This document shows positions 4,807-63,972 of a stretch of DNA of 64,000 nt, one piece after another (position 1 is the first letter of the stretch; each line of letters opens with the position of its first letter). The stretch is from a virus. The position numbers and the translations under genes are program-made. The stretch is from IMG/VR virus record IMGVR_UViG_3300017714_002439. The stretch is one strand, 5' to 3'. The notes under the pieces were generated by a model. That model was not told the origin of the DNA. It saw only the letters and a list, made by a program, of their open reading frames with translations, and made no database searches.

Positions 4807-4814
4807 TATTTATA
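4807..4814 (-). promoter_or_regulatory. T4-type late promoter, leaderless spacing
   Basis: TATAAATA-N5-ATG on minus strand, no SD. Confidence 0.65.
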
Positions 4815-4815
4815 A

Positions 4816-4821
4816 TAAATA
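4816..4821 (+). promoter_or_regulatory. Late promoter, leaderless spacing
   Basis: TAAATA-N5-ATG(4827), no SD. Confidence 0.6.
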
Positions 4822-4826
4822 TTATT

Positions 4827-5546
4827 ATGTCAAAAATAGCATTTATAGGTGATAGTTTTTCTGCATATAAACAAGCAGGTCAATTTGAAAATCATTGGTC
4901 ATGGAAATTAGCACAAAAATATCCACAACATACATATATAAATTATGCCACGGGCGGAATAGGGCATAACTATTATCAGTATGCTTTACTTGATGCAAAA
5001 ATGAATGGAGTAGATATTGTATTTGTTAGCAGAACATACAACCATCGTGTAGGCTTTCTTATTAATGATTATGAATTCAAATTTAATAAAGAAGCTCTAA
5101 CAGATAATTACACACTAGCATGTCTACAAGGTGACAGGTATGTATATTATTGTGGTTCTTCTGTATCTGGTGCTAAACATTTTTTACAAAGGTCATCAAC
5201 ATTTTTAAATTTAAGTAAATCTTTAAATCAGAAAATAGTAGATATATTACAGAATAAGAGTGTTTCGTTAACTAGTCAACAATACAATGATAAATGGTTT
5301 GATAACATAAAGGATTTATATAATTTTAAACACATAATACCATTAGAACTAATGAATATCACAGACGATAATGCTTTTAAACAAATGGCATCAGCACATG
5401 GTGTTGATAATTGTGAAATTGATGCTGACATGTTTAACTCTGGATTAATAGTATCTTTAACTGATAATCATTTGTCTCCCAAAGGTAATGATTGGGTTCT
5501 AGAAAATTATATTTTGACACTTGACACTATTAAGATACTAGAATAA
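4827..5546 (+). CDS. SGNH/GDSL-hydrolase-like protein
   Basis: N-terminal FIGDSF and C-terminal DNH (DxH) motifs. Confidence 0.6.
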   Translation: MSKIAFIGDSFSAYKQAGQFENHWSWKLAQKYPQHTYINYATGGIGHNYYQYALLDAKMNGVDIVFVSRTYNHRVGFLINDYEFKFNKEALTDNYTLACLQGDRYVYYCGSSVSGAKHFLQRSSTFLNLSKSLNQKIVDILQNKSVSLTSQQYNDKWFDNIKDLYNFKHIIPLELMNITDDNAFKQMASAHGVDNCEIDADMFNSGLIVSLTDNHLSPKGNDWVLENYILTLDTIKILE

Positions 5547-5895: not shown

Positions 5896-5924
5896 TTGAC
5901 AACTAAACTAAACTGTAGTATACT
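5896..5924 (+). promoter_or_regulatory. sigma70 promoter, leaderless spacing to uvsW
   Basis: TTGACA-N17-TATACT-N6-ATG, no SD. Confidence 0.8.
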
Positions 5925-5930
5925 TGTAGT

Positions 5931-7385
5931 ATGAATTGTGCAATAGTAATAAAAGATGAAGTAAATTGTAAAATTGAAGGTCTCGACTTAAACACTAGAA
6001 AAAAATGCGAGAAAGAACTAAAGTTCTTTATGCCATATGCATTTCATGTGCCAGCATATAAGTTAGGTAGATGGGATGGGTGTGTAAGTTTTTTCAGTGT
6101 TGGTGGTGTTACTTATGTTAATCTACTTGATAGAGTCTTGCCCATTATTATGGATGCTGGATATCAAATCACAGTAGACGATAAGCGACAACAAAATGAA
6201 TCATTTGATTTTGCGGCTGTAGATGAATCTACATTTGCACATAAAGTTTGGCCAGATAATCATCAATTAGCAGGCGAGCCAGTTGTGCTTAGAGATTATC
6301 AGATTACTATTGTTAATAAATATTTAACCACACCACAATGTTTGCAAGAAATTGCCACAGGTGCAGGTAAGACACTTATCACAGCTGCTCTATCCGAACG
6401 TGTAGAAAAGTATGGAAGATCAATTGTTATTGTCCCAAACAAAGATTTGGTAAGGCAGACATTTGATGATTATGAAAACTTAGGACTTGACGTTGGAGTT
6501 TATTTTGGCGACAAAAAAGATATAGGACGCACCCATACAATATGCACATGGCAAAGTTTAAATAGTATCAAGAAAAGATTCAGAGATGGTCTAGACGATA
6601 TGAGTTTAAGAGAGTTTTCAGATGGAGTAGTTTGTGTTATTGTAGACGAAGTCCATCAAGCAAAAGCAGATGTTTTAAAAGACATGCTTACTAAGGAATT
6701 TGCACATATTCCTTTACGTTGGGGACTTACTGGAACTATACCAAAAGAAGATCATGCTAAAGCAAGTTTACAAGCATGTCTTGGAGAAGTTACAAATAAA
6801 TTAAGTGCAAGCGAATTACAAGACATGGGAGTTTTAAGTAACTGTCACGTTAATGTAGTTCAACTAAAAGAAACGGCGGTATACAATAATTATCAAAGTG
6901 AGTTAACTTACTTAACTACAGATAAAGAACGTATGAAGTATCTCAGTAGTTTTATTCAAACAGTTGCTGAAACAGGTAATACACTTGTATTAGTAGATAG
7001 AATTAAAGCAGGAGAAATAATTGCAGAAAATATACCAGATGTTACTTTTGTTAAAGGTGCTATGAAAGTCACCGACAGAAAGGACGCATATGATGAGATT
7101 AATGAAGCAACTAATAGCATCACTGTCGCAACCTACGGTGTGGCTGCCGTTGGTATTAATATTCCACGTATATTTAACCTTATACTTCTTGAACCTGGGA
7201 AGTCGTTTGTTAGAGTTATCCAGTCAATAGGACGTGGAGTTCGTAAAGCCGAAGATAAAGATTTTGTTCAAATTTGGGATGTGACAAGCACAGCCAAGTT
7301 CAGCAAAAAGCATCTTACAGAACGTAAGAAATTTTACAAAGAAGCTAATTATCCTTTTACTATTGAGAAGACTGATTGGCGTTAA
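5931..7385 (+). CDS. uvsW: UvsW-like SF2 DNA helicase
   Basis: LRDYQ Q-motif, ATGAGKT, DEVH, LTGT, QSIGRGVR. Confidence 0.9.
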   Translation: MNCAIVIKDEVNCKIEGLDLNTRKKCEKELKFFMPYAFHVPAYKLGRWDGCVSFFSVGGVTYVNLLDRVLPIIMDAGYQITVDDKRQQNESFDFAAVDESTFAHKVWPDNHQLAGEPVVLRDYQITIVNKYLTTPQCLQEIATGAGKTLITAALSERVEKYGRSIVIVPNKDLVRQTFDDYENLGLDVGVYFGDKKDIGRTHTICTWQSLNSIKKRFRDGLDDMSLREFSDGVVCVIVDEVHQAKADVLKDMLTKEFAHIPLRWGLTGTIPKEDHAKASLQACLGEVTNKLSASELQDMGVLSNCHVNVVQLKETAVYNNYQSELTYLTTDKERMKYLSSFIQTVAETGNTLVLVDRIKAGEIIAENIPDVTFVKGAMKVTDRKDAYDEINEATNSITVATYGVAAVGINIPRIFNLILLEPGKSFVRVIQSIGRGVRKAEDKDFVQIWDVTSTAKFSKKHLTERKKFYKEANYPFTIEKTDWR

Positions 7386-10144: not shown

Positions 10145-10978
10145 ATGTCAAATTACGCAACCACTTATAATATCAATCAAACAGGCGACCTTTACGCCGT
10201 TGATGCCACTAGTAGCAAAGCAGGACTAGGCAACTATGCTTCATCCACTGGCACTACTATAAACGCTCCTGTTAATTACAGGTTCTTAAAGCTATTTACC
10301 GGTTTAGATAATGAGTTCTTTTTTTACATTAAGAACATAGATCGTAAACCAATACAGTTGCAAGGACATACTATTACTGCTAATGTAGTTAATAGAGAAA
10401 CCCAGGCAAAATTATTATCAAAGAAATGTCAAATTGTTGACTATGATGAAGGCAAAGTTAAACTGGTTATTACATCCGGTGAAATGGCTGCAATTCAAAA
10501 CGGCTTCCTTGATCTAGTATTTACCTATGTAAATTCTCAAGGTTTAAATCTTCCATTATTTGTTGATCAAAATCTTAGACCAAATTATACAATAGAAGTA
10601 AGTAACCAAACACAAAGTATTCCACTACTATCAGCAGAAACAACTACATTTAATACTAGAGTAGAAGGAACAGACACATACTATTATAGTGGACACCTAC
10701 CAGGACCCGGTGCAAAAAACAAAGTTAATGGAATGGTTACTATAGCAGTATACACCACTAACTTTACAGGTAACTTTTTTATACAGGGTGCATTAGAAGA
10801 AAATCCAGCAGAATCCGATTGGTTTAACATTATATTAGGAACTTACACGGAAGAACATTACCCATATATCAATAGATCTGGAATTGATCCATGGACATTC
10901 AGAACTAATATTAAATATATTAGAGCAAGATTCACACAAACACAAGGAACACTTGACAAAGTCATCATAAGAGTGTAG
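10145..10978 (+). CDS. Probable virion structural protein
   Basis: TAAATA promoter and AGGAG SD; Thr/Asn/Gly-rich beta composition. Confidence 0.5.
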   Translation: MSNYATTYNINQTGDLYAVDATSSKAGLGNYASSTGTTINAPVNYRFLKLFTGLDNEFFFYIKNIDRKPIQLQGHTITANVVNRETQAKLLSKKCQIVDYDEGKVKLVITSGEMAAIQNGFLDLVFTYVNSQGLNLPLFVDQNLRPNYTIEVSNQTQSIPLLSAETTTFNTRVEGTDTYYYSGHLPGPGAKNKVNGMVTIAVYTTNFTGNFFIQGALEENPAESDWFNIILGTYTEEHYPYINRSGIDPWTFRTNIKYIRARFTQTQGTLDKVIIRV

Positions 10979-10981
10979 TAT
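10953..10981 (+). promoter_or_regulatory. sigma70 promoter embedded in upstream CDS, leaderless spacing to primase
   Basis: TTGACA-N17-TAGTAT-N6-ATG, no SD. Confidence 0.75.
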
Positions 10982-10987
10982 ATACAC

Positions 10988-11995
10988 ATGAGCTTAATGA
11001 TCGACTACGTTAGAAATCTGGTTCCGGTTAACTGGAAACAAAATCCAAGTGGCTGGACTTCTGGCAATTGTCCTATGTGTATAACAAATGGACAATCAAG
11101 ACCAGATACACGTGGACGAGGTGGTTTTCATTTTGAAGATGATAAGTTTCAATATCATTGTTTTAATTGTCATTATAAAACAGGGTTTTCGCCCGGTAAT
11201 AAAATTAATGATAGATTAAAAAAACTATTAGTGCAATTTGGTGCAGATCCTACACAAGTGCAACGTTTACAACTAGAGTTGTTGCGTGAACAAGATATTG
11301 CACAAACATTAATGGTGCAAGAGCGTAGAAAGAAACTAGTAATTGATTGGCCTACAGTAGCATTGCCAGACAATGCTAAACCTTTTATGGAACATACACC
11401 AACACCTGACTGGACAGAAGCAGTAACATATCTAACAGATAGAGGATTTGATATAACAGATCCTAGGCTGATGTATAGCCCTGCTAAATTGCCGGCTAGA
11501 ATGTTCAAACGTTTTGTAGTTCCATTTTATTATAAAGGTAATGTTGTAGGATATACAGCAAGATGGATAGGTAATCCACCAGATAAAATGCCAAAATATT
11601 TTAATCAACAACCACCTAAAAATTTTGTGTATGGGTTAGATAGACAGCATGCTGACAAAGAAATTGTTATATTGACAGAAGGCCCATTAGATGCTATAAT
11701 AACAGATGGAATCAGTGCAGGCACTAATACTATTAGCGATGAACAAGCAGACGTTATTTTAAGTTTAAACAAACAAATTGTTGTGTTACCTGATGCCGAT
11801 AAGGCAGGCATGCAAATGGTTAACGCAGCAGTTAAGTATGGTTGGAGTGTTGCATTTCCTGAATGGGATAATTGCAATGATGCCGGCGATGCCTTAACAA
11901 AATACGGTAGATTATTTACAGTGCGTAGTATATTAAATAGTGCAGTAAGTAACCCAACAAAAATACAAGTTTTAGGAAGGAATTATTGTAAATGA
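10988..11995 (+). CDS. DNA primase (gp61/DnaG-like)
   Basis: CPMC...CFNC Zn ribbon, TOPRIM TEGPLDA and PDADKAG. Confidence 0.9.
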   Translation: MSLMIDYVRNLVPVNWKQNPSGWTSGNCPMCITNGQSRPDTRGRGGFHFEDDKFQYHCFNCHYKTGFSPGNKINDRLKKLLVQFGADPTQVQRLQLELLREQDIAQTLMVQERRKKLVIDWPTVALPDNAKPFMEHTPTPDWTEAVTYLTDRGFDITDPRLMYSPAKLPARMFKRFVVPFYYKGNVVGYTARWIGNPPDKMPKYFNQQPPKNFVYGLDRQHADKEIVILTEGPLDAIITDGISAGTNTISDEQADVILSLNKQIVVLPDADKAGMQMVNAAVKYGWSVAFPEWDNCNDAGDALTKYGRLFTVRSILNSAVSNPTKIQVLGRNYCK

Positions 11996-16694: not shown

Positions 16695-17162
16695 ATGTAT
16701 ACAAAAAGTAATCAGCGACCTACAGAAGTCATTGGTCGTAACACGGCATTCTATTCAATTTATACTCTAATAGATGTAACTGATTCTGATGTATCAAGTC
16801 CTAAAATAAATGCAAAAAAGCTCCATCAAAGTCAGAACTTAAATACATTTATGCAAGTTATAGGACTAAGAACACAACCTATAATAAGTAGTGTTACTAA
16901 ATTGCAGTCACAAACTATGGCAGACTACGATTTTGGTAATAATTTTACAGGTTCACATACTGTTTGGTTATTAAAATTTGTATCAGAAACAGAAGGTGCA
17001 TGGAAAAAAGAAGAAAATGAAACAACCCTTTTATTAGATGACTTTAATCTAGTTCCTATACATGATGGATTAGACGAAACAGCAACAATAGATGGAGATA
17101 TTATAAATACTGATAACGAAGATAGGTTAAATACTTACTTCAAATTTAGTGAAAACATATAA
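16695..17162 (+). CDS. Hypothetical protein
   Basis: Intact ORF in operon. Confidence 0.6.
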   Translation: MYTKSNQRPTEVIGRNTAFYSIYTLIDVTDSDVSSPKINAKKLHQSQNLNTFMQVIGLRTQPIISSVTKLQSQTMADYDFGNNFTGSHTVWLLKFVSETEGAWKKEENETTLLLDDFNLVPIHDGLDETATIDGDIINTDNEDRLNTYFKFSENI

Positions 17163-23050: not shown

Positions 23051-23695
23051 ATGAAGTTAATCTTACATCAAAGTAAATCTATTAAATCTAACAATTCTAC
23101 ATTTCCAAGATGGGTGTATGATTGTGATACACATATACTTAAAATTATTCCAAATGGAACTTCCGCTTTATTCACAGCAGAACAGCTAAACAAAAATGCT
23201 AATGTAATTAATGAAACATTAGGTTTTAAATATTTTTATGGTATTGAAACTGTTGATAATTTTATCCACATGAATATCCACAAATTGGATAATGCAAATT
23301 ACAATCATACTATTAAAGAAGATTTTTTAGAAATGTTAGATATATGGATAGATATAAATCTGAAAATATTTCCATTATGTAATGTTGATATTAATGAAAA
23401 TAATATTAGGCTATATAAAGATAAGCCTGTATTAATTGATTGGGATGATGCATTACAAGGTAATAAGCATACAGCATTTTATATTATAGCAGAATTATAT
23501 AGGCATTGTATGGTATTTTTAGATCAACAAGAAGTTGTTGATTGTATACAACACCGCATACAATCAACTTGTTTAGAAATTGATATAAAACAATGGGATT
23601 GGATAATCAATAACTACCAACTTCGCGGATATGACTTTGAAAAAGTTTTGCATTGGAGTGAACTTCCTGACAGTTGGTTACTTAAAAAAGATTGA
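23051..23695 (+). CDS. Protein-kinase-like/APH-fold phosphotransferase
   Basis: NVDINENNI (HxDxxxxN-like) and VLIDWD (DFG-like). Confidence 0.5.
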   Translation: MKLILHQSKSIKSNNSTFPRWVYDCDTHILKIIPNGTSALFTAEQLNKNANVINETLGFKYFYGIETVDNFIHMNIHKLDNANYNHTIKEDFLEMLDIWIDINLKIFPLCNVDINENNIRLYKDKPVLIDWDDALQGNKHTAFYIIAELYRHCMVFLDQQEVVDCIQHRIQSTCLEIDIKQWDWIINNYQLRGYDFEKVLHWSELPDSWLLKKD

Positions 23696-23720
23696 CAACA
23701 TAAAGGTTTTAGTGTAACAT
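23692..23720 (+). promoter_or_regulatory. sigma70 promoter, leaderless spacing to exonuclease
   Basis: TTGACA-N17-TAACAT-N6-ATG, no SD. Confidence 0.75.
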
Positions 23721-23726
23721 ATAAGC

Positions 23727-24419
23727 ATGGCTGAATTAATCAAAATCTACGACTATAAAGAACTAAAGCGTCAAAGTGTAGACGGAAAGCGTCTATATGA
23801 AAATCCATATGGCGACCCAGTTCCAAGTGTCACAACAATTTTAGGTGCTACACAACCAGCAGAAAAGCGACAAGCATTAGCTAACTGGCGTAAACGTGTT
23901 GGAACAGAAGAAGCACAACGCATTACTACAACTGCCGCAAATCGTGGAACAGTTATGCACAATATATTAGAACATTGGGCATTGGGAGAATACGAAACAT
24001 ATAATCCTGGAAACAATATTGTTCATAGACAAGCCAAAGATATGGCACAAGTTGTTATTGAAAATATAGAAAATGATATTGATGAAATTTGGGGCACAGA
24101 AGTAAACTTATGTGCGGCAAATCTATATGCAGGAACAACAGATTTAGTTGGCATGTATAAAGGCAAGCCAACTATTATGGACTTTAAACAAACCAACAAA
24201 CCTAAAAAGCGTGAATGGATTGATGATTATTTCCTACAGGGTGCTGCATATGGATTAGCACACAACGAAATGTTTGGAACAGATATTAAGAATATTGCTA
24301 TTTTTATGTGCAGTGGAGATTGCGAATGGCAGTTGTTTGAGTCAGAAGAAGATGAATTTTCTTATTGGGCAACGCAATGGGCTAAAAGATTAGAGAAGTT
24401 TTATGGCATGTCTTCATAA
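23727..24419 (+). CDS. PD-(D/E)xK exonuclease (RecB/Cas4-like fold)
   Basis: PSVTTIL, GTVMH, YAGTTDL, IMDFKQ, QGAAY. Confidence 0.85.
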   Translation: MAELIKIYDYKELKRQSVDGKRLYENPYGDPVPSVTTILGATQPAEKRQALANWRKRVGTEEAQRITTTAANRGTVMHNILEHWALGEYETYNPGNNIVHRQAKDMAQVVIENIENDIDEIWGTEVNLCAANLYAGTTDLVGMYKGKPTIMDFKQTNKPKKREWIDDYFLQGAAYGLAHNEMFGTDIKNIAIFMCSGDCEWQLFESEEDEFSYWATQWAKRLEKFYGMSS

Positions 24420-32279: not shown

Positions 32280-32355
32280 GCCGGTTTAGCTCAGTTGGTA
32301 GAGCAACTGATTTGTAATCAGTAGGTCCGCAGTTCGAATCTGTGAATCGGCACCA
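32280..32355 (+). tRNA. tRNA-Thr(UGU)
   Basis: Full cloverleaf, GCCGGTT/AATCGGC acceptor, TGT anticodon, encoded CCA. Confidence 0.95.
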
Positions 32356-32467: not shown

Positions 32468-32543
32468 GGGGGATTAGCTCAGATGGGAGAGCGCCTGATT
32501 TGCATTCAGGAGGTCGTCAGTTCGATCCTGATATCCTCCACCA
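32468..32543 (+). tRNA. tRNA-Ala(UGC)
   Basis: Full cloverleaf, GGGGGAT/ATCCTCC acceptor with G3:U70, TGC anticodon, encoded CCA. Confidence 0.95.
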
Positions 32544-48398: not shown

Positions 48399-48578
48399 AT
48401 GTTATACTTAATACTATTTTTCTGTGGAATACTTTTTACAATGGCTGTTGTATCAATTTGGATGCATGAAAAATCATATGATATACCAAAAATTCCTACT
48501 ACTTTATCAGAAGAAAAAGTAGATCAACTAAAATACAGAATATACAAGGCACAGCAAAGATTACAACAAAATAAATAG
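48399..48578 (+). CDS. 59-aa membrane protein (not in ORF track), leaderless
   Basis: TAAATA(48388-48393)-N5-ATG; N-terminal TM. Confidence 0.55.
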   Translation: MLYLILFFCGILFTMAVVSIWMHEKSYDIPKIPTTLSEEKVDQLKYRIYKAQQRLQQNK

Positions 48579-48582
48579 TTGT

Positions 48583-49548
48583 ATGTTATATAAACGCATA
48601 CACACAATCCAATTTGATTTAAATGTTATATGTAATGCATTCTGCCCAGGATGCCATAGATACGCAGTAGTAGATGATGAAATGTATCTCAATCCATATC
48701 TACCATTTAATACTAGTGTAGATTTAAGCATTGTAGAACGTGTAATGGAAAATACTAGGTTAATTGATAACGTAGTAATTGATATGGTTGGGTTAGTAGG
48801 TGAGCCAATTGCACACAATGAGTTTTTAGATATAGTTGATATCATATATGGGCATAAACCTAATGCACGTATACACATTCACACAAATGGTGGATTACGC
48901 TCAGTAGAATTTTTCAAAGAACTTGCACATAAGTTAAATCATCAATCGTGGATTATATTCTCAATTGATGGATTAGCGGATACAAATCACAAATATAGAA
49001 TTGGAGTTATATGGGAAAAGGTAATGGAAAATGCAAAAGCATACATAGATGCAGGAGGAAAAGCAATATGGAAGTCTTTAGATTTTCCGTGGAATAGTCA
49101 CCAAAAAGAAGATATGCAATCATTATCAATTGATATGGGATTTAAAGGTTTTAGGTGGGAGAAAAATAGAGATGCTAATACTAAATGGATGGAAAAGTGG
49201 GTAAAAGCTGCAGAAAAGTTTAATCAAAAAACAAAAGCAAAACTAGGATACAAACAAGTATTATATCAACAACACTTTAATAGTATAAAAAATAGATGCT
49301 TTGATGATGAAGCAATTTACATAAATTATCAAGGTAAAGTTTTGCCATGTTGTATGTTTAATGCATCATTAACAGATGAGTCATATATGGACGAAATGAA
49401 ACCCTATATTAATGAAAATAATGAGAATTGGAACAGTTTAGAGCACAATACACTAGAAAATGTGATGAATAATAAATGGTGGCACAAGCTGTATGGCCAT
49501 TTAGATACTAAACCATGCAGTGTTTGTATCCATGCCTGTGATACATAA
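48583..49548 (+). CDS. Radical SAM protein with C-terminal SPASM/Twitch
   Basis: CNAFCPGC, GEPIAH, HTNGG, C..IYIN..G...PCC..CSVC; TAAATA(48572-48577)-N5-ATG. Confidence 0.88.
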   Translation: MLYKRIHTIQFDLNVICNAFCPGCHRYAVVDDEMYLNPYLPFNTSVDLSIVERVMENTRLIDNVVIDMVGLVGEPIAHNEFLDIVDIIYGHKPNARIHIHTNGGLRSVEFFKELAHKLNHQSWIIFSIDGLADTNHKYRIGVIWEKVMENAKAYIDAGGKAIWKSLDFPWNSHQKEDMQSLSIDMGFKGFRWEKNRDANTKWMEKWVKAAEKFNQKTKAKLGYKQVLYQQHFNSIKNRCFDDEAIYINYQGKVLPCCMFNASLTDESYMDEMKPYINENNENWNSLEHNTLENVMNNKWWHKLYGHLDTKPCSVCIHACDT

Positions 49549-52255: not shown

Positions 52256-52277
52256 TTGGCATTAACTAAATACTGTT

Positions 52278-53282
52278 ATGCTTTATAAAGAAATTGATAC
52301 TGTTGAATTTGATCTCAATACAGTATGTAACAGTTATTGTCCCCCTTGCCATAGATATACAATTCAAGACGGTGAGCTATTTCATAACCCATATGTAAAA
52401 CTAGGCGTTAATTTAGAATTAGATGTAATTGAGAAAGTATTCTGTAATGAACGTTTAGCAGATGATTGTTTTGTTGATCTAGTAGGACTTGTAGGTGAAC
52501 CAATTGCACATCCAAAGTTTATGGAAATAGTAGATATTATTTACAAACATAGACCAAACGCAGCAATTAACTTACATACAAATGGTGGATTACGAACTGA
52601 AAAAATGTTCTATGACTTAGGTAAAAAGTTTAACAAACACAGTTGGATTAAATTTTCATTAGATGGACTAGAAGATACAAACGGTATATATCGTATTGGA
52701 GTAGATTACCATAAAGTAATAAGAAATATGCGAGCATTTATAGATGGTGGTGGACGAGCAATATGGAAGTTTGTTACATTTGAATGGAATAAACATCAAG
52801 TAGAAGAAGCAAAAGCGTTATCAGAAGAATATGGCTGTTCTAAATTCCAACAAGATTGGGATGTCAATGATATGAGTATAAAGCAATATATGAAAGCAGC
52901 TAACACAAAAATTAATTATAAGGTTCAGGCTACCAAAGGTGATAATAGATTTCCTAATTTACCTGATAGAACATCTTATAAGATTGTAGATAGATGTTTT
53001 ACATATAAAAAGATATATGTAAATGCACATGGTTATGTTATTCCATGTTGTATGTTTAATGGTGCAATGACATATGATTCTATGCGTAATCAAACACTAA
53101 ATTTTATTAAAGAAGATAGAGCTGAATATTGGAATAGTTTATATCATAACGATTTAGAAACTATAATGAGTGATACATGGTGGCAAAAATTAAACGATAG
53201 TTTTAATGGTAATGCATGTGATATATGTATTGAACAATGTGGCAAGAATAACATTCCAAAAAACGAACGCTATTTTGATTGA
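52278..53282 (+). CDS. Radical SAM protein, paralog of 48583..49548
   Basis: CNSYCPPC, GEPIAH, HTNGG; TAAATA(52267-52272)-N5-ATG. Confidence 0.88.
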   Translation: MLYKEIDTVEFDLNTVCNSYCPPCHRYTIQDGELFHNPYVKLGVNLELDVIEKVFCNERLADDCFVDLVGLVGEPIAHPKFMEIVDIIYKHRPNAAINLHTNGGLRTEKMFYDLGKKFNKHSWIKFSLDGLEDTNGIYRIGVDYHKVIRNMRAFIDGGGRAIWKFVTFEWNKHQVEEAKALSEEYGCSKFQQDWDVNDMSIKQYMKAANTKINYKVQATKGDNRFPNLPDRTSYKIVDRCFTYKKIYVNAHGYVIPCCMFNGAMTYDSMRNQTLNFIKEDRAEYWNSLYHNDLETIMSDTWWQKLNDSFNGNACDICIEQCGKNNIPKNERYFD

Positions 53283-55174: not shown

Positions 55175-55182
55175 TATAAATA
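55175..55182 (+). promoter_or_regulatory. T4-type late promoter, leaderless spacing
   Basis: TATAAATA-N5-ATG(55188). Confidence 0.65.
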
Positions 55183-55187
55183 CTAAT

Positions 55188-55883
55188 ATGAAAATACATG
55201 ATATCTTAGAACAGATGATGGACGAAGGTCCAAATGATCCAGCTATATTTAAAGCAGTATTTCTTGCTGGTGGTCCTGGATCTGGTAAAAGTTATGTGGC
55301 AAGTAAAATTCTTTCAGGTTTAGGTCTCAAGCCAGTAAACAGTGATGACATCTACGAATACCTAGCTGACAAACAAGGTATTGATTTAGGAGATCCAGAT
55401 GCAGTTGCTAGTGATAGAGGACAAGAACTCAGAAACAAAGCCAAAGAATTAACTAATAAAAGACAAAATGTATACATAGACGGTCGTATTGGATTAATTA
55501 TTGATGGCACAGGTAAAGATGTGCAAAAGGTAAAAGAACAAAGTTTAATACTAAAAAATCTAGGATATGAATGTATAATGTTATTTGTAAACACAAATCT
55601 AGATGTTGCACAAAAACGTAATTTAGAAAGACCACGCAAACTGAAACCAGAAATGGTTGATAATATGTGGCGTAAAGTTCAAGAAAATATTATGAAGTTC
55701 CAACAGGTATTTGGCGCCAGTAACTTTCACGTTGTTGATAATAGCGGAGGGTTAGAGGACCCTGAACGTAAAGAAAACTTTGACAATGTATACAAGAAAG
55801 TTAGAGCGTTTATTTCATCTCCACCAGCTAGTCATACCGCTAAAAAGTGGTTAGATGACGCTAAAAGTAAAAATACCACTTAA
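55188..55883 (+). CDS. P-loop kinase (AAA_33/zeta-toxin/PNK-like)
   Basis: FLAGGPGSGKS, VNSDD, IIDGTG, RN..R.R. Confidence 0.8.
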   Translation: MKIHDILEQMMDEGPNDPAIFKAVFLAGGPGSGKSYVASKILSGLGLKPVNSDDIYEYLADKQGIDLGDPDAVASDRGQELRNKAKELTNKRQNVYIDGRIGLIIDGTGKDVQKVKEQSLILKNLGYECIMLFVNTNLDVAQKRNLERPRKLKPEMVDNMWRKVQENIMKFQQVFGASNFHVVDNSGGLEDPERKENFDNVYKKVRAFISSPPASHTAKKWLDDAKSKNTT

Positions 55884-55959
55884 ATCACCACAAAATATAG
55901 GTAAATATATAATAACGGCACAACTTTGTGTCATAAAGATTGGTTAATAAAGATAACAG

Positions 55960-56304
55960 ATGTATACATATAAAGCAAAACTTATTCGTATAGTTGACGG
56001 CGATACTATCGATGCAGAAATAGATTTAGGATTTGATACAATAGTTCGTAAGAGAATTAGACTGTATGGAATTAATACTCCTGAAATCAGAACAAAGGAT
56101 GCCGTTGAAAAAGAAAAAGGATTTGCTGCAAAGCAACGCCTTACTGAACTTCTTAATGGCGAGTTTGTAGTAGAAACTATTTTGAATAAACGTGGCAAAT
56201 ACGGTAGAGTTTTAGGTGTATTATATACTAAAGATAATGATACAAAAGTAAACATAAATGAAACTTTAGTAGCAGAAGGCCACGCTGTTAAGTATCTTGG
56301 TTAA
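55960..56304 (+). CDS. Thermonuclease (SNase-like)
   Basis: IVDGDTID, RIRLYGINTPE, KYGRVLG. Confidence 0.9.
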   Translation: MYTYKAKLIRIVDGDTIDAEIDLGFDTIVRKRIRLYGINTPEIRTKDAVEKEKGFAAKQRLTELLNGEFVVETILNKRGKYGRVLGVLYTKDNDTKVNINETLVAEGHAVKYLG

Positions 56305-56320: not shown

Positions 56321-57913
56321 ATGATGAGAATTTTTGGTTATTGGACAATCTTTATCGCACTAGTCATTAGTGCAATTGCAGCCTATTATTCAATCATAGG
56401 ACTAATTGCAATTTTTGCCGCAGCGGCAATTCCTGTTATTGTAATGGGAACAGCATTAGAGATTGGTAAAATTACATCAGCTATATGGTTACATTTAAAG
56501 TGGAAAACCGGAAAATGGCTTATCAAAGGATATCTAGTATTTGCAGTTGCATTGCTTATGTTTATTACAAGCATGGGTATATTTGGATTCCTATCAAAAG
56601 CACACGTAGAGCAAAATGCGTCAATGCTAGAAGGCGAAGCACAACTAGAGCGTATTGTAATTGAAATTACACGTGCAGAAGGTGAAATTGATCGTTATGA
56701 AACTAAAATTGAAAAACTTTCTACAGCAGACACTAGCACAGATGATGGAATACAAGAAAAGATTAGAATAGCAGAAGAAAGCATTACGACTGTATACGAT
56801 AGATTAAAAGACGACATTAAATTTACACAAGAATCATTAGCAACAGCAGCCGCTCCATATGAGAAGCAAGCCGAACAGGCAGATGCTACACTAGAAAAAA
56901 TGAATACTTATGTTGAAGAAAATAACATAAGAGCATTACAAGGATTAGTAGGTGCTGCACAAGATGGAAGAATGGGATCTAAAACAGCCGATAAAGTTAC
57001 AGAATTCCGTGACAAGACTGAAAAGAGCAGAATGATGGCTTTGTTCCAACTTGGAAAAATTAGAGAAGCATCACAAGAAGACATTGTTAAATTAAGAGAA
57101 GCAGCAGATAAGACAATAGCACAAACAAATGAACTTATTACTCGTTTGCGTGAGCAATTAGGAACAGCAACAGATACAGATGTTGAACCACAAATACAAG
57201 AATTACAAGCTAAAATTAAAGAGTTTGAAATAAATTTAGATACACTGTTTGAACAAAAGTATGCAATTGAAGCCACTAGTAGAGAACTAGAGGCAGACGT
57301 AGGTCCTGTAAAATATATTGCAGAACTAGTATATGGCAATGAAGCAGACAGAGATTCACTTGAAGATGCAGTTAGATGGGTAATACTATTACTTGTTATA
57401 GTATTTGATCCACTTGCAATTGTATTAGTTATTTCAGGAATATCTCTTGTTGAAGAATACCCTAGAAAAAAGAGGATTCGCAATGAAAAAGATACGCATA
57501 CTGAAAATGAACCAACGCCCACGTTGGTGGAAAAAAATATCAATAAGTCGTCTAAAGATACTAAGGAACCAAAACGCCCAAAAGTAACCCCTAAAACAAA
57601 ACAGCCGAGTTCTGACTCAATAGAATACAAAGGTAAAGTATACGAGCCTACACATTATAACTATCATCGCATCAAAGAACAAATTGAAGAAAACAATCGG
57701 CACCGTGAAATTACCGAAAGACAATCATTGGTAAATAATATTGTAGAAGAACTATATGATGATGAATCAACAGATGACATTGATATTGTTAAAAAGAAAT
57801 TAGAACAAATGTTTGAAGAAGATAAATCAAAACAAGAACTATTACAAAATGCAGACAAAAATTCAATACGAGAAGTATTTGACAATATTATTAGGGACAC
57901 TAAGAAATTTTAA
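56321..57913 (+). CDS. Multi-TM membrane protein with long coiled coil
   Basis: N-terminal TMs, coiled coil, TM near residue 350, charged tail. Confidence 0.75.
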   Translation: MMRIFGYWTIFIALVISAIAAYYSIIGLIAIFAAAAIPVIVMGTALEIGKITSAIWLHLKWKTGKWLIKGYLVFAVALLMFITSMGIFGFLSKAHVEQNASMLEGEAQLERIVIEITRAEGEIDRYETKIEKLSTADTSTDDGIQEKIRIAEESITTVYDRLKDDIKFTQESLATAAAPYEKQAEQADATLEKMNTYVEENNIRALQGLVGAAQDGRMGSKTADKVTEFRDKTEKSRMMALFQLGKIREASQEDIVKLREAADKTIAQTNELITRLREQLGTATDTDVEPQIQELQAKIKEFEINLDTLFEQKYAIEATSRELEADVGPVKYIAELVYGNEADRDSLEDAVRWVILLLVIVFDPLAIVLVISGISLVEEYPRKKRIRNEKDTHTENEPTPTLVEKNINKSSKDTKEPKRPKVTPKTKQPSSDSIEYKGKVYEPTHYNYHRIKEQIEENNRHREITERQSLVNNIVEELYDDESTDDIDIVKKKLEQMFEEDKSKQELLQNADKNSIREVFDNIIRDTKKF

Positions 57914-58365
57914 TGAATTTAAACGACAATAGCAGTTACACGGTAACTGCACCTGATTTATTTCTATCTGAAAATGGAGTAAATGTTTTAATCACAAGCA
58001 CTAACGAAAAACTAATCAATGACATGAAATTGTTATTTGAAAAGTTTATTAGATCAAGCGTAGTTTTTAATGTGCAACAAAAAGAAACTAAACCAGATAG
58101 TATGCCATGGATGTGGCATGTTAGTAGGACCTGTGAATACATGTTAGTTGATTTAGATACTTGTGCATGGGAAGATATTATGGCTGCAATATTAAAAACA
58201 ACAGATGAAAATCATACTGTAATTTTTTATAGCGAAAAAAACGTCAGAAGAGAAGCACTTAAACTTATTAATGCAACCAGCAAATATATTATAATTCATA
58301 ACTTAGAAGAATTAAATAGGTTCCTAGATATAGATACCCGTTACCCAGGCATGACAGATGAATAA
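57913..58365 (+). CDS. Hypothetical protein
   Basis: TAATG coupling. Confidence 0.6.
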   Translation: MNLNDNSSYTVTAPDLFLSENGVNVLITSTNEKLINDMKLLFEKFIRSSVVFNVQQKETKPDSMPWMWHVSRTCEYMLVDLDTCAWEDIMAAILKTTDENHTVIFYSEKNVRREALKLINATSKYIIIHNLEELNRFLDIDTRYPGMTDE

Positions 58366-59557
58366 TCCATACTGTAATTTTTGCGGTAAAAACAAGCATC
58401 AAACTAAAAAACTTTTAGCAGGCAATGATGGAACACACATATGCGATGGATGTGTTGATCTTTGTCACGACATTCTAATTAAAGAAAAAAGTAAAGAAAA
58501 CAAAAAGCCTACAGTAGTTAATAGGCTTAAACAAACTACACCCAATGAATTGCATACACACTTAAATAGATATGTCATTGGGCAAGATCGTGCTAAAAAG
58601 ACGCTTAGTGTAGCTGTATACAACCATTACAAGCGTATTATGAATACAACGCAAGTTAACCTACAAAAGAATAATGTGTTAATTGCAGGACCTACAGGAA
58701 CAGGAAAAACGCTAATAGCACAAACACTTGCTAAGTTTTTAGATGTTCCTTTTGTAGTTACAGATGCTACAACAATTACTGAAAGTGGATATGCTGGTGA
58801 TGACACAGAAGTGTTACTTGATAAGTTATTACAATCAGCAGATTATGATGTTGAAAAAGCACAGTTAGGTATTATATACGTTGACGAAATTGACAAGAAA
58901 GCAAAGCGTAATGACGTTGTAACATTAAGCCGTGATGTAAGTGGTGAAGGTGTGCAACAAAGTCTATTAAAATTAATGGAAGGTGTTACTGTAAAAATTC
59001 CAAATAAACCAGGTGATCATCCAGAAAAAGTAGATATAGATACCACCAATATATTGTTTATAGTTGGTGGTGCATTTATAGGATTAGAAGAACTCGTAAA
59101 ACAACGTATAGGACAAAGTAAAATAGGCTTTAATGATGATAAGCAAGAACAACTAGATAATTGGGAATTACACCTACAAACACGTGATTTAGTGCAATAT
59201 GGACTTATACCAGAATTTGTAGGAAGATTACCTAGTGTTAACGTTTTACACCAATTAACCAAGGAAGAATTGGTAAAAATCCTTACAGAACCCCAAGATT
59301 CCATAATAGATCAAATAAAAGTGCTTTTTTCACTTGACAAAATAGAAATAGAGTTTAATATAAAAGCATTAGAAGAGATTGCCAATATTGCAATCGAACA
59401 GGACCTCGGTGCTAGAGGTTTAAGAAAAATACTGGATTCAGCACTTGTAGATACACAATACCAGTTACCACAGTTAAGAGAAAGCGGAGTGAATAAAATT
59501 ATTATAACAGAAAAAACTATCACTAATGGACACCCGCCATTAATGGTAAAAGGATAA
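58358..59557 (+). CDS. clpX: Clp protease ATPase subunit ClpX
   Basis: C4 Zn domain, GPTGTGKT, YVDEIDK, SGEGVQQ, IGF loop, GARGLR. Confidence 0.96.
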   Translation: MNNPYCNFCGKNKHQTKKLLAGNDGTHICDGCVDLCHDILIKEKSKENKKPTVVNRLKQTTPNELHTHLNRYVIGQDRAKKTLSVAVYNHYKRIMNTTQVNLQKNNVLIAGPTGTGKTLIAQTLAKFLDVPFVVTDATTITESGYAGDDTEVLLDKLLQSADYDVEKAQLGIIYVDEIDKKAKRNDVVTLSRDVSGEGVQQSLLKLMEGVTVKIPNKPGDHPEKVDIDTTNILFIVGGAFIGLEELVKQRIGQSKIGFNDDKQEQLDNWELHLQTRDLVQYGLIPEFVGRLPSVNVLHQLTKEELVKILTEPQDSIIDQIKVLFSLDKIEIEFNIKALEEIANIAIEQDLGARGLRKILDSALVDTQYQLPQLRESGVNKIIITEKTITNGHPPLMVKG

Positions 59558-59558
59558 T

Positions 59559-60077
59559 ATGAGGCAACAACATCATAAAAATCCAAGGCATCGAGTTATT
59601 GCTAATGAAAGAATTAAAGCAACTGATGTTAGGGTAATTGCTAGAGATAGCGAATCACAAGTAATGCCTTTAAGTAGTGCATTACAAAGAGCAAAGGACG
59701 AGGAGTTAGATTTAATACTTATAAATCACAAAATCGATCCTCCATTATGTAGAATAATGGAAATGAATAAGTTTTTGTATGAACAAAAACAAAAAGAAAA
59801 AGAAGCTAAAAAACGCCAACGTGAAAACGTAGTAGATCAAAAAGAGATACGAATGGGGCTTAACATTGATTTGCATGACTTACAAACTAAGGCAAATCGT
59901 GCTAAAAAGTTTTTAGAACAAAAAGCAAAGGTCACGGTGACCGTTGTATTAAAAGGTCGCGAAAGGGGCCGACAAGACATGGCTAGAGATCTGTTAAAAA
60001 ACTTCGCAGAAATGCTTGAAGCTGAGTATGAGACGATAAATACTCAAAACAACAGAGTTATAGGGCGTGTTAAATAG
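59559..60077 (+). CDS. infC: Translation initiation factor IF3
   Basis: NERI...VRVI, LDL..I, PP.CRIM, KEIR....I..HD.QTK, KGRE. Confidence 0.93.
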   Translation: MRQQHHKNPRHRVIANERIKATDVRVIARDSESQVMPLSSALQRAKDEELDLILINHKIDPPLCRIMEMNKFLYEQKQKEKEAKKRQRENVVDQKEIRMGLNIDLHDLQTKANRAKKFLEQKAKVTVTVVLKGRERGRQDMARDLLKNFAEMLEAEYETINTQNNRVIGRVK

Positions 60078-60084
60078 GTAAAAA

Positions 60085-60348
60085 ATGGGTAAATATAATA
60101 ATAATCGTAACGACAAAGATTCAAGACATGGCGGCATGTATGTTGAAGTAAGAAACAACAATGTAGAGCAAGCTATGAGAAAGCTGAAGAAAAAGCTAAT
60201 GAATGACGGAATCATGCAGGAGTTACGTGAACGACAGTATTTCGTAAGTAATACAGAAAAGCGATTAAAGGCCGAGGCTCAGGCTCGTGCTAGACATCGC
60301 AAACGTATAGCTAAAGATAATCCAGAAAATAAGAAAAGGCTATACTAA
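60085..60348 (+). CDS. rpsU: 30S ribosomal protein bS21
   Basis: VEVRNNNVEQAMRKLKKK...G...ELRERQYF. Confidence 0.88.
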   Translation: MGKYNNNRNDKDSRHGGMYVEVRNNNVEQAMRKLKKKLMNDGIMQELRERQYFVSNTEKRLKAEAQARARHRKRIAKDNPENKKRLY

Positions 60349-60382
60349 ACAGAATTTGTATACATGTAGTATACAAATAGGC

Positions 60383-60437
60383 GGGATGCCGAAAGGGTCC
60401 CATAATTAACATCTTGCTTAAAAGGAGATAAAAGATG
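60383..60437 (+). promoter_or_regulatory. ROSE-like RNA thermometer leader of hsp20
   Basis: GNRA-capped hairpin plus ATCTTGCT-TAAA-AGGAGAT hairpin with bulged G opposite the SD. Confidence 0.55.
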
Positions 60438-60875
60438 AAAACACTAACAACACTTGATCTAAATAAGATCACACCATATGCAGTTGGCTTTGACAGAATC
60501 ATTTCTGACATGTTCCAATATGCAGAAAATAACGTAGCAAGCACAGGCTACCCACCATATAACATTCGCAAAGAAGGTGACAAATTTCAAATTGAAATTG
60601 CACTTGCTGGAGTTACTAAAGAAGATTTAGATATTACAGCAGAAGGTGGAAAGCTAACAATCGCATACAATCCAGAAGAAATAGAACCAACAGTTGAAGA
60701 AGCAATGACTGAATGGTTACATAAAGGTATTGCACAGCGTAAGTTCAAACGTGTTTGGACATTATCTGATGATGTAGTTGTAAACGGTGCTAAAATGGAA
60801 AACGGAATGCTTTATATTGAATTAGAGCGTATCGTTCCAGAAGAAAAGAAAGCCCGTTCAATTAAAATCAAATAA
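60435..60875 (+). CDS. Small heat-shock protein Hsp20 (IbpA-like)
   Basis: GFD, GYPPYNI, IEIALAG, HKGIAQRKF.R, A.MENGML.I. Confidence 0.93.
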   Translation: MKTLTTLDLNKITPYAVGFDRIISDMFQYAENNVASTGYPPYNIRKEGDKFQIEIALAGVTKEDLDITAEGGKLTIAYNPEEIEPTVEEAMTEWLHKGIAQRKFKRVWTLSDDVVVNGAKMENGMLYIELERIVPEEKKARSIKIK

Positions 60876-60940: not shown

Positions 60941-61240
60941 ATGGCACAGGAACAAGAACAAGTTGCAGAACGAACAAAACTTAAATCACCAAATAAATAT
61001 TTTGTGATATTTTTAAATGATAATGTAACACCTGTAGAATATGTAATACAGGTATTAACAACATTCTTTGGCAAAACATCTGAAGAAGCACATGATATTA
61101 CATTAGAAGTCCATGAAAACGGCAGATCAGTTGCTGGTGCATATAGCTATGAAGTAGCTGAACAAAAATGCATAGAAACAGTTACAGATGCAAGAAAACA
61201 TAGCTATCCACTCGATGTAGTTATGGAAGAATCAGTATAA
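60941..61240 (+). CDS. clpS: N-degron adaptor ClpS
   Basis: VIFLNDNVTPVEYVI, TLEVHENGRS...Y..EVAE. Confidence 0.92.
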   Translation: MAQEQEQVAERTKLKSPNKYFVIFLNDNVTPVEYVIQVLTTFFGKTSEEAHDITLEVHENGRSVAGAYSYEVAEQKCIETVTDARKHSYPLDVVMEESV

Positions 61241-61249: not shown

Positions 61250-61278
61250 TTGACAATTTAGAATTTTGATGTTATAAT
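61250..61278 (+). promoter_or_regulatory. Consensus sigma70 promoter
   Basis: TTGACA-N17-TATAAT. Confidence 0.8.
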
Positions 61279-61304: not shown

Positions 61305-61640
61305 ATGAAAGTAAACATTAATGATATACAAGGTGAAATAGCCAAACAAGATGAACGTTATACAGTAACGGATAATAAAACTCTTAACAATTTAGTTCTT
61401 AGTTCCACAAGATTAAATCCAACATGTTCAACAAATGGGCATAGCCATAGTGGACAAGAAGAAATTTACTTCTTTGTAGAAGGTTCAGGTAAAATGGAGT
61501 TAGGCGAAGAAACTATTATTTTTGTTGAAGGTGACGTAATTTTAATACCAGATGGAATATTTCATAAAGTTATAGCAGGACCACTAGGAGCATATTTTGT
61601 ATGTGTATTTGATGGAAAGAGATATGATCATGGAAAATAA
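61305..61640 (+). CDS. Cupin-domain protein
   Basis: HSH..QEEIYFFVEGSG, GDVILIPDGIFH; GAGGT SD favours start 61305. Confidence 0.85.
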   Translation: MKVNINDIQGEIAKQDERYTVTDNKTLNNLVLSSTRLNPTCSTNGHSHSGQEEIYFFVEGSGKMELGEETIIFVEGDVILIPDGIFHKVIAGPLGAYFVCVFDGKRYDHGK

Positions 61641-62061
61641 TAAAACAGTTGGGTTCACATGTAGCACCTTTGATTTATTACATGCAGGACATATCGGCAT
61701 GCTGAGAGAAGCAAAAGCAAACTGTGATTATTTAATTGTGGGATTGCAAAGTGATCCTACTATTGATAGACCTGACACAAAAAATAAACCAATACAAACA
61801 ATGGTAGAACGTTATGCACAACTTAATGCATTACATTTAGTTGATGAAATTGTTCCATATCAAACAGAAAAAGACCTAATTGATATACTAGAGTTATTTG
61901 CAATTGATGTAAGATTTTTAGGCGAAGAATATAGAGAAAAAGAATTTACTGGAAAAGATGTATGTCGCAAACGTGGAATAGAATTACATTTTAATAAACG
62001 TGATCATAGATTTAGCACAAGTGATTTAAGAAAACGTGTTTGCGAAAAGGAAACTAAATGA
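61630..62061 (+). CDS. Cytidylyltransferase (TagD-like)
   Basis: TFDLLHAGH, LIVGL, VDEI, FSTS. Confidence 0.88.
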   Translation: MENNKTVGFTCSTFDLLHAGHIGMLREAKANCDYLIVGLQSDPTIDRPDTKNKPIQTMVERYAQLNALHLVDEIVPYQTEKDLIDILELFAIDVRFLGEEYREKEFTGKDVCRKRGIELHFNKRDHRFSTSDLRKRVCEKETK

Positions 62062-62597
62062 CAATACATGCAATGATTGATTTGGAAACATTAGGCACTT
62101 CGCCCGATTGTGCCGTGTTAACTATTGGCGGTGTTAAGTTTAATCCCAATGCTGTATCAGAACCATATCAGCCTTTTTATTATAGGTTTAATGTAGACGA
62201 ACAATTAGAAAAAGGTCGCACAGTATTAGATAGCACATTAGAATGGTGGGGCAAACAAGAAGAAAGTGTGCGTAACGAAGCACTTGGTGATGAGAATAGA
62301 ACACCTGTTCTAGAAGTATTACAAGCACTAAACAAATGGTGTGTGGGTGTTGATACTATTTGGTGTCAAGGACCTGCATTTGATATTGTAATATTAGAGA
62401 GCATGTTTAAAGAATACAAACATCATATACCTTGGCCGTTTTGGAAGATACGTGATAGCAGAACGCTGTTTGGTATTATGCCAGTAGACCCACGTAAAGC
62501 AATTAATTTTGCGGCCCACAATGCATTAGAAGATTGTAAAGTCCAAGCATTGTGTGTTCAGCAAACACTACAAAAGTTACAACTGGAGGTTAGGTAG
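62058..62597 (+). CDS. DEDDh 3'-5' exonuclease (Rv2179c-like)
   Basis: MIDLETL, QG..FD, RDSRT, HNALED. Confidence 0.85.
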   Translation: MTIHAMIDLETLGTSPDCAVLTIGGVKFNPNAVSEPYQPFYYRFNVDEQLEKGRTVLDSTLEWWGKQEESVRNEALGDENRTPVLEVLQALNKWCVGVDTIWCQGPAFDIVILESMFKEYKHHIPWPFWKIRDSRTLFGIMPVDPRKAINFAAHNALEDCKVQALCVQQTLQKLQLEVR

Positions 62598-62846
62598 ATG
62601 TTACATACTGTAGAAGCACTAATAGATAAAATTAAAGTAATGCACGATAAAGCAATTATACTACACAGGCTTCGAAACCAGTATTCAGAATCTGCAGATA
62701 AAACATACGATAAAAAACAGTGCCAATTAATAATTGATGATATACAGGCACTAGCACTTCTTATTGCTAACGATAAGCAAGGAACTGAAATTAAAACAGA
62801 GATGGAATATAAGAAGTTTATAAAGGATCAAATAGATGAGAATTGA
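62598..62846 (+). CDS. Hypothetical protein
   Basis: GAGGT SD, coupled. Confidence 0.6.
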
Positions 62847-63972
62847 AGAAGATCAAAAATTAGATTACAGTGACGTGCTTATTCGTCCTAAACGTAGCAC
62901 ATTAGGTTCACGCAAAGAAGTAGACTTGGAACGTGGATTTACATTTCGTAATACCGCATCACCAAAACATGAAAATAATCGACACTATCGTGGCGTTCCA
63001 CTTATGGCAAGTAACATGGACGGTGTTGGAACATTTGAAATGGCAGATGAATTAGCAAGTCAAAAGATTATGACTTGTTTGGTTAAAACTTATAGTGTAG
63101 AACATTTAGCGGCATACTTTGGAACAGATAGTAAAGAACGCAGAGATTATGTAGCAATGAGTATTGGCATTACAGACAAAGATGCTGATAAATTTTCTCA
63201 AGTATATGAACAAGCAAGTAAAGGTTTAAAGTATGTATGCATTGATGTAGCTAACGGATACAGTGAAAGATTTGGTAATTTTGTGAGAAAGTTTAGAAAA
63301 CAATATCCAAATACAGTAATTATAGCAGGTAATGTAGTTACCGGAGAAATGACAGAGGAGTTAATTTTAAATGGAGCAGATATTGTTAAAGTGGGTATTG
63401 GTCCCGGGTCTGTTTGCACTACTAGGATACAAACTGGTGTGGGATATCCGCAGTTATCGGCGGTCATCGAATGTGCCGACGCAGCACACGGACTTGGTGG
63501 TCACGTCATTGCTGATGGTGGGTGCAGTTGCCCTGGAGATATCGCTAAAGCCTTTGCCGGAGGGGCAGATTTTGTTATGCTTGGTGGCATGCTTGCTGGC
63601 CATGATGAAGGCGGCGGGGAAATTGTAACAAAACATATTGCCACAGGCGGAGCATATAAAACACCCGAAGGAACATTTATTCCTTATTTTGAAGAACAAA
63701 ATTTTATAGCATTTTATGGCATGAGTTCAGATGCGGCTAACACAAAACACTTTGGTGGATTAAAAGATTATCGTGCAAGTGAAGGTCGTGAAGTATTAGT
63801 GCCCTATCGTGGAGTAGTTGCAAATACAATACAAACTATATTAGGTGGAGTTAGAAGTTCTTGCACCTATGCTGGTGCTAAACGATTAAAACATCTTATG
63901 CGTTGTGCAACTTTTGTAAAAGTTAATAATCAGTTTAATCGCACCTATGAGAATACCACAACTAAATCGTAA
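62836..63972 (+). CDS. guaC: GMP reductase
   Basis: [51 protein letters not shown]. Confidence 0.95.

Follow-up and report, generated by a model that had tools for sequence, protein, structure and literature searches.

A conserved clpX-infC-rpsU operon in a marine giant phage, and its relation to leaderless and Shine-Dalgarno-led gene starts

Why should a phage carry the genes for initiation factor IF3 and ribosomal protein bS21 side by side, directly behind clpX? The question is raised by a 64,000-nt stretch of viral DNA (IMG/VR record IMGVR_UViG_3300017714_002439; hereafter "the window", meaning the whole stretch), in which clpX, infC (IF3) and rpsU (bS21) are three tightly packed genes on the + strand [58358-60348]. 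A preliminary description of this DNA proposed that the two factors time or bias initiation between leaderless mRNAs and mRNAs led by a Shine-Dalgarno (SD) sequence, and ranked this coupling as the leading candidate for an undescribed system. As discussed below, the genes and their arrangement are real and conserved, and their adjacency appears to be better explained by an older ClpX-IF3-bS21-Hsp20-ClpS block than by a coupling to leaderless genes. Phage IF3 and bS21 are each known, as the same description stated [PMC7162821, PMC6375957, PMC9723584, PMC11242549]. The infC and rpsU genes of the phage clade represented by the window belong to this published kind, that is, phage-encoded translation initiation genes, and the ranking as an undescribed system is not upheld.

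The earlier observation of adjacent infC and rpsU directly after clpX holds, because profile scores, alignment and predicted fold agree. The clpX gene [58358..59557, + strand] encodes a 399-aa protein with a zinc finger and an AAA+ domain [NF003745, 507 bits; TIGR00382, 474 bits; Pfam zf-C4_ClpX and AAA_2]. The 172-aa product of infC [59559..60077, + strand] scores 130.1 bits with the whole-protein profile TIGR00168 (cut-off 60) and is recognized by the profiles of both IF3 domains, IF3_N [PF05198; 78.9 bits vs a cut-off of 26.9] and IF3_C [PF00707; 69.2 vs 34.8]. An AlphaFold model built on 20 relatives, with a predicted local distance difference test (pLDDT) score of 84, has the full IF3 architecture in the expected order: an N-domain, a long helical linker and a beta-alpha-beta-alpha-beta-beta C-domain. 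In Foldseek, the model matches solved full-length IF3 chains with a template modeling (TM) score of 0.74, and its C-domain superimposes on the isolated C-domain 1tig with a root-mean-square deviation of 1.3 Å. The rpsU gene [60085..60348, + strand] encodes an 87-aa bS21 [PF01165, 51.9 bits, cut-off 27; TIGR00030, 50.4 bits, cut-off 28.95], whose residues 20-87 align with residues 4-71 of Escherichia coli bS21, the terminal RLY included. It begins with a basic extension of 17 residues, in which Asn, Lys and Arg abound. Such an extension is present across the clade, in variable length, and matches the basic N-terminal extension that Al-Shayeb et al. 2020 described for huge-phage bS21 [PMC7162821]. 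Purifying selection acts on both genes, with a pairwise ratio of nonsynonymous to synonymous substitution rates (dN/dS) of 0.11-0.21 for infC and 0.09-0.17 for rpsU. The clpX-infC-rpsU genes are probably functional.

The infC start can be read directly. The ATG [59559] lies 1 nt past the clpX stop codon [TAA, 59555-59557], and the AAGGA SD motif claimed earlier is found within the last clpX codons [59550..59554, + strand], 4 nt ahead of the ATG. The infC frame is closed at 59547-59549 and opens only from 59550; hence, an upstream ATT or any other non-canonical start is impossible. The gap between infC and rpsU is 7 nt. The infC ATG of relatives is embedded in the clpX end [ATGCAGAATAG], where AAAGGTGA within clpX is the equivalent SD, and rpsU either follows infC after 7-12 nt or overlaps it. 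This spacing indicates that clpX, infC and rpsU form a translationally coupled operon. ATG is the infC start in all clade copies with a readable start, except in one lineage with GTG/TTG, while infC of the Agrobacterium phage Atu_ph07 and the Sinorhizobium phage Phosso has a GTG start behind AAGGAG.

The cellular paradigm is the E. coli infC-rpmI-rplT operon with its AUU-type start. The phage protein shares with E. coli IF3 the two-domain build, the linker tyrosine and the G-R-E core. In contrast, the phage gene starts with ATG, and its downstream neighbor is rpsU, with neither rpmI nor rplT following, such that both hallmarks of an autoregulated cellular infC (an AUU, AUA or AUC start and the infC-rpmI-rplT context) are absent. 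A control set of 80 cellular infC genes contains 18 in which the open frame before the conserved N-terminus lacks any ATG, GTG or TTG; these 18 must therefore use a non-canonical start. With its canonical ATG and a location outside the infC-rpmI-rplT context, phage infC escapes start-codon autoregulation, in keeping with what the preliminary description had proposed.

The operon is part of a larger conserved arrangement. The order ClpX-IF3-bS21-Hsp20-ClpS is kept on one strand in about 30 marine IMG/VR loci and holds down to 36-50% IF3 identity; the full conserved order reads SNase-like nuclease, 530-aa protein, 150-aa protein, ClpX, IF3, bS21, Hsp20, ClpS, cytidylyltransferase and GMP-reductase-like protein. 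Some lineages lack members of the block. In lineage L007/G004 [G004:C1:38083-39500], clpX is followed directly by rpsU and clpS, and infC is absent from this site and from the rest of the 55-kb G004 contig, while locus L034 keeps IF3-bS21 without ClpX. More distant phages have parts of the block. Pseudomonas phage PA5oct [EST35_0255 to 0259 and the next, ClpS-like open reading frame (ORF)] shares the order ClpX, bS21, Hsp20, ClpS but has no IF3 between ClpX and bS21, its bS21 gene overlaps the clpX end, and two small ORFs precede Hsp20; a literature search on PA5oct with S21 and ClpX gave nothing useful. In Cronobacter phage GAP32, IF3 adjoins ClpS, and ClpX and bS21 are missing there. Atu_ph07 and Phosso have ClpX directly followed by IF3, as in the window, but bS21 is not adjacent; a 65-aa ORF after IF3 in Phosso, considered as a divergent bS21, has no Pfam match and was rejected. 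The Sinorhizobium jumbo phage AP-J-162 likewise has clpX adjoining IF3, with bS21 elsewhere in the genome, and carries an L7/L12 gene [PMC11242549]. Finally, in the cultured SAR11 (Pelagibacter) myophages HTVC008M and Mosig, whose genomes of 141-147 kb are unlike those of the giant-phage clade, bS21 and Hsp20 are near neighbors. The HTVC008M genome yielded no IF3 and no ClpX, and the gene content of Mosig refers to a 6-kb stretch around bS21. These gene orders would be read most simply as descending from an ancestral ClpX-IF3-bS21-Hsp20-ClpS block that lost different members in different lineages and is kept in full by the clade of the window.

Huge phages are already known to encode IF3 and bS21 [Al-Shayeb et al. 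2020, PMC7162821; Mizuno et al. 2019, PMC6375957], and the proposed role of these genes is to redirect host translation initiation [PMC7162821]. The genes described here differ from the published ones in that IF3 and bS21 belong to one translationally coupled operon with clpX, within a fixed five-gene block, and in that IF3 of the clade carries substitutions at sites where cellular IF3 is invariant (see below).

How, and when, would such an operon be transcribed? A TAAATA element of the T4-late type [55902..55907, + strand] lies ahead of the operon that ends with clpX-infC-rpsU, with a leader of ~52 nt and ~3.6 kb upstream of the clpX-infC-rpsU part. (A/T)TAAATA recurs ~45-55 nt upstream of the orthologue of the SNase-like gene in every relative, the most distant at 55% protein identity, although the flanks have diverged. 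Moreover, a late sigma factor similar to gp55 is encoded by G002, a clade member of 221 kb [phrog_12791, 3e-89]. The clade contigs yielded no gp33 homologue; HTVC008M has homologues of both gp55 and gp33. The conserved element together with the gp55-like sigma factor suggests late, T4-type transcription of the operon. Such timing would agree with another system, in which phage bS21 is expressed late [PMC9723584]. The T4-late-like 8-mer TATAAATA is not enriched in the window (9 found vs 13 expected), and the T4-late signal is informative only as a TAAATA core whose distance to an ATG is fixed. A separate late promoter for rpsU was considered at a TAAATA 8 nt before the gene [60071-60076]; it was rejected, since these letters are part of the codons GTT AAA TAG and are not conserved, relatives having GAAATA or AAAATA. 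A generic scan of 54-64 kb for sigma-70 promoters and terminators gave fewer promoter-like sites than shuffled sequences and no terminator after rpsU. Two hairpins are predicted between rpsU and hsp20 [60354..60401, + strand; fold of 60340-60440, -23.2 kcal/mol, z = -3.5] but, lacking a U-tract, they do not form a canonical terminator. Contigs from marine RNA libraries cover the operon, one of 1130 nt spanning clpX and infC into rpsU and another covering 60258-60443 with the hairpins. These are assembled contigs, in which 5′ ends, strand and level cannot be read and which may include DNA; they are weak evidence, because a contig cannot prove a transcript.

Collectively, these data lead to the reading that we prefer, with a confidence somewhat above even: the clpX-infC-rpsU operon would be the core of an old giant-phage block, whose late-made IF3 and bS21 load host 30S subunits and retune initiation. 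The operon would be transcribed from its TAAATA promoter, presumably by host RNA polymerase together with the phage gp55-like sigma factor. The phage would supply its own IF3, free of start-codon autoregulation, plus an N-terminally extended bS21. Both proteins are expected to dock on the 30S platform, by the anti-SD tail and the E/P-site region, and we infer that their loading onto host 30S subunits takes place in the late, high-output phase of infection. Once loaded, they may raise or retune the capacity of the host 30S pathway for initiation on phage mRNAs, while the products of the neighboring Clp and Hsp20 genes may look after protein quality. Some observations weigh against this reading. 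Shared ancestry, and not a joint function, may account for the synteny seen across phage families. The late timing derives from the promoter motif and from the sigma gene of the relative G002, not of this genome. In addition, IF3 of the clade lacks several residues that are invariant in cells and thus may not be a plain extra copy of the host factor.

The main alternative ties the two factors to the way in which phage genes start, and its premise, that this genome has both leaderless and SD-led genes, is well supported. With the geometry of T4 late promoters, transcription from TAAATA-N5-ATG would begin at the A of the start codon. In the window, this arrangement occurs 13 times, compared with 0-6 times at the other spacings from 0 to 15, and 10 of the 13 units open ORFs of at least 60 codons (9-11 across counts), compared with 0-3 at other spacings. 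When every hexamer is compared at every offset before ORF-opening ATGs, TAAATA at offset 5 comes out on top in the window and in the related contigs G001 and G004. The genes concerned encode three radical-SAM paralogues, an ATPase/PNK-like protein and proteins of no assigned function. The unit of the ATPase/PNK-like gene [55188-55883; unit at 55177..55190, + strand], which adjoins the operon, keeps its spacing in the G001 and G004 orthologues. Two of the radical-SAM genes have their units on the + strand as well [gene 52278-53282, unit at 52267..52280; gene 48583-49548, unit at 48572..48585], and the third paralogue, on the minus strand [3671-4801], is headed by the same arrangement.

A second class consists of four units in which TTGACA, a spacer of 17 nt, a -10 hexamer and six further nt precede the ATG (TTGACA-N29-ATG). 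They head one minus-strand gene and the genes for a helicase [5931-7385; sigma-70-type unit TTGACA-N17-TATACT-N6-ATG at 5896..5933, + strand], a primase [10988-11995; unit at 10953..10990, + strand] and an exonuclease [23727-24419; unit at 23692..23729, + strand]. The orthologues of these three proteins in G002 (61-75% protein identity, the helicase at 75%) keep the TTGACA geometry, the spacers having diverged. The start of gene 57913 also fits the sigma-70 leaderless pattern but is a false positive, as it lies inside the operon with the TTGACA in upstream coding sequence. Among the 95 ORFs of the window, 43 have an SD core, 13-14 are of the leaderless type and 38 have neither signal. The leaderless class is therefore real at the level of sequence, the transcript ends being predicted, and the earlier counts of 13 predicted leaderless and many SD-led genes are reproduced in substance (9-11 ORF-opening TAAATA-N5-ATG units plus the four TTGACA units).

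Some arrangements of these units deserve mention. The minus-strand radical-SAM gene diverges from an ORF for a 239-aa protein [4827-5546] across a gap of 25 nt, which carries two opposed and overlapping TAAATA-N5-ATG units [4799-4829]; with this overlap, the two leaderless-type promoters should exclude each other. Units also occur in frame inside genes, at 12797-12810 in the gene of the DnaB-like helicase [11992-13389] and at 16840-16853 in the ORF 16695-17162. These may be leaderless starts that give shorter products, or they may be chance occurrences.

Could IF3 and bS21 together shift ribosomes between the two mRNA classes? Switching on the operon might, for example, silence the early replication genes, which are of the sigma-70-type leaderless class, to the benefit of SD-led late genes. 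In E. coli, 30S-bound IF3 discriminates against leaderless mRNA, and ribosomes that lack uS2 and bS21 favor it [PMC8138138, PMC10491246]; a contrary role has been reported for 50S-bound IF3. The canonical infC start would also suit a switch. The preliminary description predicted a correlation across phages between the presence of infC/rpsU and leaderless-spaced promoters, which was followed up on a small scale in the window, G001, G002, G004, HTVC008M, Mosig, T4, P-SSM4, Syn9, PA5oct, GAP32 and Atu_ph07 (P-SSM4 and Syn9 entering with the promoter signal only). The leaderless signal is present in the window, G001 and G002, all with IF3 and bS21, and it is kept in G004, which has bS21 without infC (7 leaderless-spaced units in 55 kb). 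HTVC008M, with bS21 and without IF3, has 14 TAAATA-N5-ATG units, 12 of which open ORFs, and Mosig, with bS21, has 11 vs 3 in the control; in these two phages, the unit often reads TAAATAGTnnTATG. T4, which has neither infC nor rpsU, is not enriched for TAAATA-N5-ATG, and the same holds for the cyanophages P-SSM4 and Syn9. Leaderless late genes in SAR11 phages were not mentioned in any paper that we found.

Every leaderless-rich phage in this small sample thus carries bS21, a point in favor of the switch. However, only SD hexamers stand out in PA5oct (bS21), GAP32 (IF3) and Atu_ph07 (IF3; bS21 is reported for its close relative AP-J-162 [PMC11242549]), and the helicase orthologues of these phages are SD-led. 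Since these three lack the signal, and G004 and HTVC008M have it without IF3, carriage of IF3/bS21 does not predict the leaderless class in this small sample. The class rather appears to follow marine lineages that share the TAAATA motif, and these lineages may share one origin of the bS21-Hsp20 neighborhood. As the carriers with the signal are all marine, the correlation with bS21 is confounded by lineage and host. The promoter of the operon adds a further difficulty. It belongs to the TAAATA class, as do most leaderless genes, so the factors would not be made ahead of their targets and no clean temporal switch would result. If IF3 and bS21 oppose leaderless mRNA as in E. coli, they would repress the phage's own leaderless genes, including the 9-11 of the TAAATA class. 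No specific wiring of infC-rpsU to leaderless genes is apparent in these genomes, and we regard the switch as unlikely.

One reason to keep a link between IF3 and leaderless genes under consideration lies in the protein itself. The 20 IF3 sequences of the clade were compared with 80 cellular IF3s, a sample biased towards Firmicutes, and with those of Atu_ph07 and Phosso; E. coli, Thermus and Geobacillus IF3 were included in the printed alignments. The fidelity tyrosine of the linker [Y74, corresponding to E. coli Y75] and the core residues G133, R134 and E135 are invariant in the clade and align with E. coli. In contrast, the clade differs from all or nearly all of the cellular sequences at residues 126 (K to T), 130 (R to V/T/I), 131 (F to L), 136 (M/L to R), 138 (H to R/K), 142 (G to A) and 165 (G to N), where K126, R130, F131, H138 and G165 are each kept in 77-80 of the 80 cellular IF3s of the Firmicutes-biased sample. 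On the AlphaFold model, the changed sites map to strand beta2 of the C-domain and the following loop. Arginines in this region of E. coli IF3 affect mRNA positioning and the rejection of non-canonical complexes. IF3 of Atu_ph07 and Phosso keeps the cellular C-domain residues (126 being R in Atu_ph07).

These changes at cell-invariant sites keep alive the reading in which the marine giant-phage clade practices two modes of translation. About 15% of the genes would be leaderless, comprising the conserved sigma-70-type replication genes and gp55-type late genes, and a remodeled IF3 together with the N-extended bS21 would let ribosomes accept these mRNAs or be steered between modes; we think this improbable, to much the same degree as the switch. 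A narrower version, which we rate slightly lower still, is that IF3 of the clade has lost part of the discrimination surface of its C-domain and replaces host IF3 on the 30S or 70S ribosome, such that leaderless and SD-led phage mRNAs are translated side by side. The substitutions fit this version, and so does the retention of cellular residues in Atu_ph07 and Phosso, whose genomes look SD-led. On the other hand, the cellular sample has the bias mentioned above, the function ascribed to the changed residues is carried over from E. coli mutagenesis, the fidelity tyrosine and the G-R-E core are retained, and G004 and the SAR11 phages have leaderless-type genes without such an IF3.

The last alternative regards the block as a ribosome-remodeling unit, in which ClpX (with host ClpP) and ClpS would strip hibernation factors or host IF3/bS21 from ribosomes and phage IF3/bS21 would take their place, reactivating the ribosomes of slow-growing marine hosts. 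The recurrence of IF3 and bS21 beside genes for Clp proteins and Hsp20, seen in at least five lineages of phages, the translational coupling of infC to clpX and the wide occurrence of the phage in marine metagenomes, where hosts grow slowly, agree with it, but a physical or substrate link among the five genes is hypothetical, their proximity may be a matter of inheritance and not of function, the window yielded no ClpP, and L034 (IF3-bS21 without ClpX) and GAP32 (IF3-ClpS without ClpX or bS21) break up the supposed unit, which leaves little probability for it.

To our knowledge, the function of phage-encoded IF3 and bS21 has never been tested. The clade offers a clean test system in this respect, as it combines a compact clpX-infC-rpsU unit and defined IF3 substitutions with leaderless-type and SD-led starts in one genome. 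If IF3 were linked to leaderless initiation, this would be the first virus to re-tune start-site selection by replacing an initiation factor. If no such link exists, the block would still mark a "translation plus proteostasis" module that is old and common to T4-related giant phages, and leaderless late genes would be a trait of marine (probably SAR11-type) phages.

The neighbors of the operon complete the conserved block. The co-directional unit opens on the + strand with the SNase-like nuclease gene [55960..56304], conserved upstream of the block in relatives, followed by genes for a 530-aa membrane/coiled-coil protein [56321..57913], syntenic in relatives, and a 150-aa protein whose start overlaps the preceding stop codon [57913..58365], neither of them assigned to a family. 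Downstream of rpsU, also on the + strand, are the syntenic genes hsp20 [60435..60875; PF00011, 57.8 bits; strong SD AAAGGAG] and clpS, encoding the Clp adaptor [60941..61240; PF02617, 93.3 bits]. A cytidylyltransferase gene [61597-62061] and a 3′-5′ exonuclease-like gene [62058-62597] precede the GMP-reductase/IMPDH-like gene [62836-63972], which closes the conserved block in nearly all relatives.

The source of the window is, judging from its gene content, an implied genome size of roughly 350 kb and its occurrence in marine metagenomes, an uncultured marine giant phage. The nearest IMG/VR record, of 67.9 kb, is rated 19% complete, which gives the size estimate; metagenomic contigs that carry relatives of the phage IF3 reach 330 kb, and the stretch is found nearly whole in marine metagenomes from many studies. 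The window has 33-36% G+C, carries nearly all genes on one strand and encodes ribonucleotide reductase, DnaB-like and other helicases, a primase and an exonuclease. An attempt to infer the host from the nearest cellular IF3 was abandoned, as the best matches (35-47% identical) reflect search patterns (Firmicutes) and not a donor. Two tRNA genes are present, tRNA-Thr (TGT) at 32280-32355 and tRNA-Ala (TGC) at 32468-32543, and a leaderless-type gene at 32596 follows them. A perfect TTGACA-N17-TATAAT with a TG extension is located at 61250-61278, 11 nt before a cupin gene at 61290; no other 12/12 sigma-70 consensus occurs in the last 10 kb, and this one falls within the late-type block.

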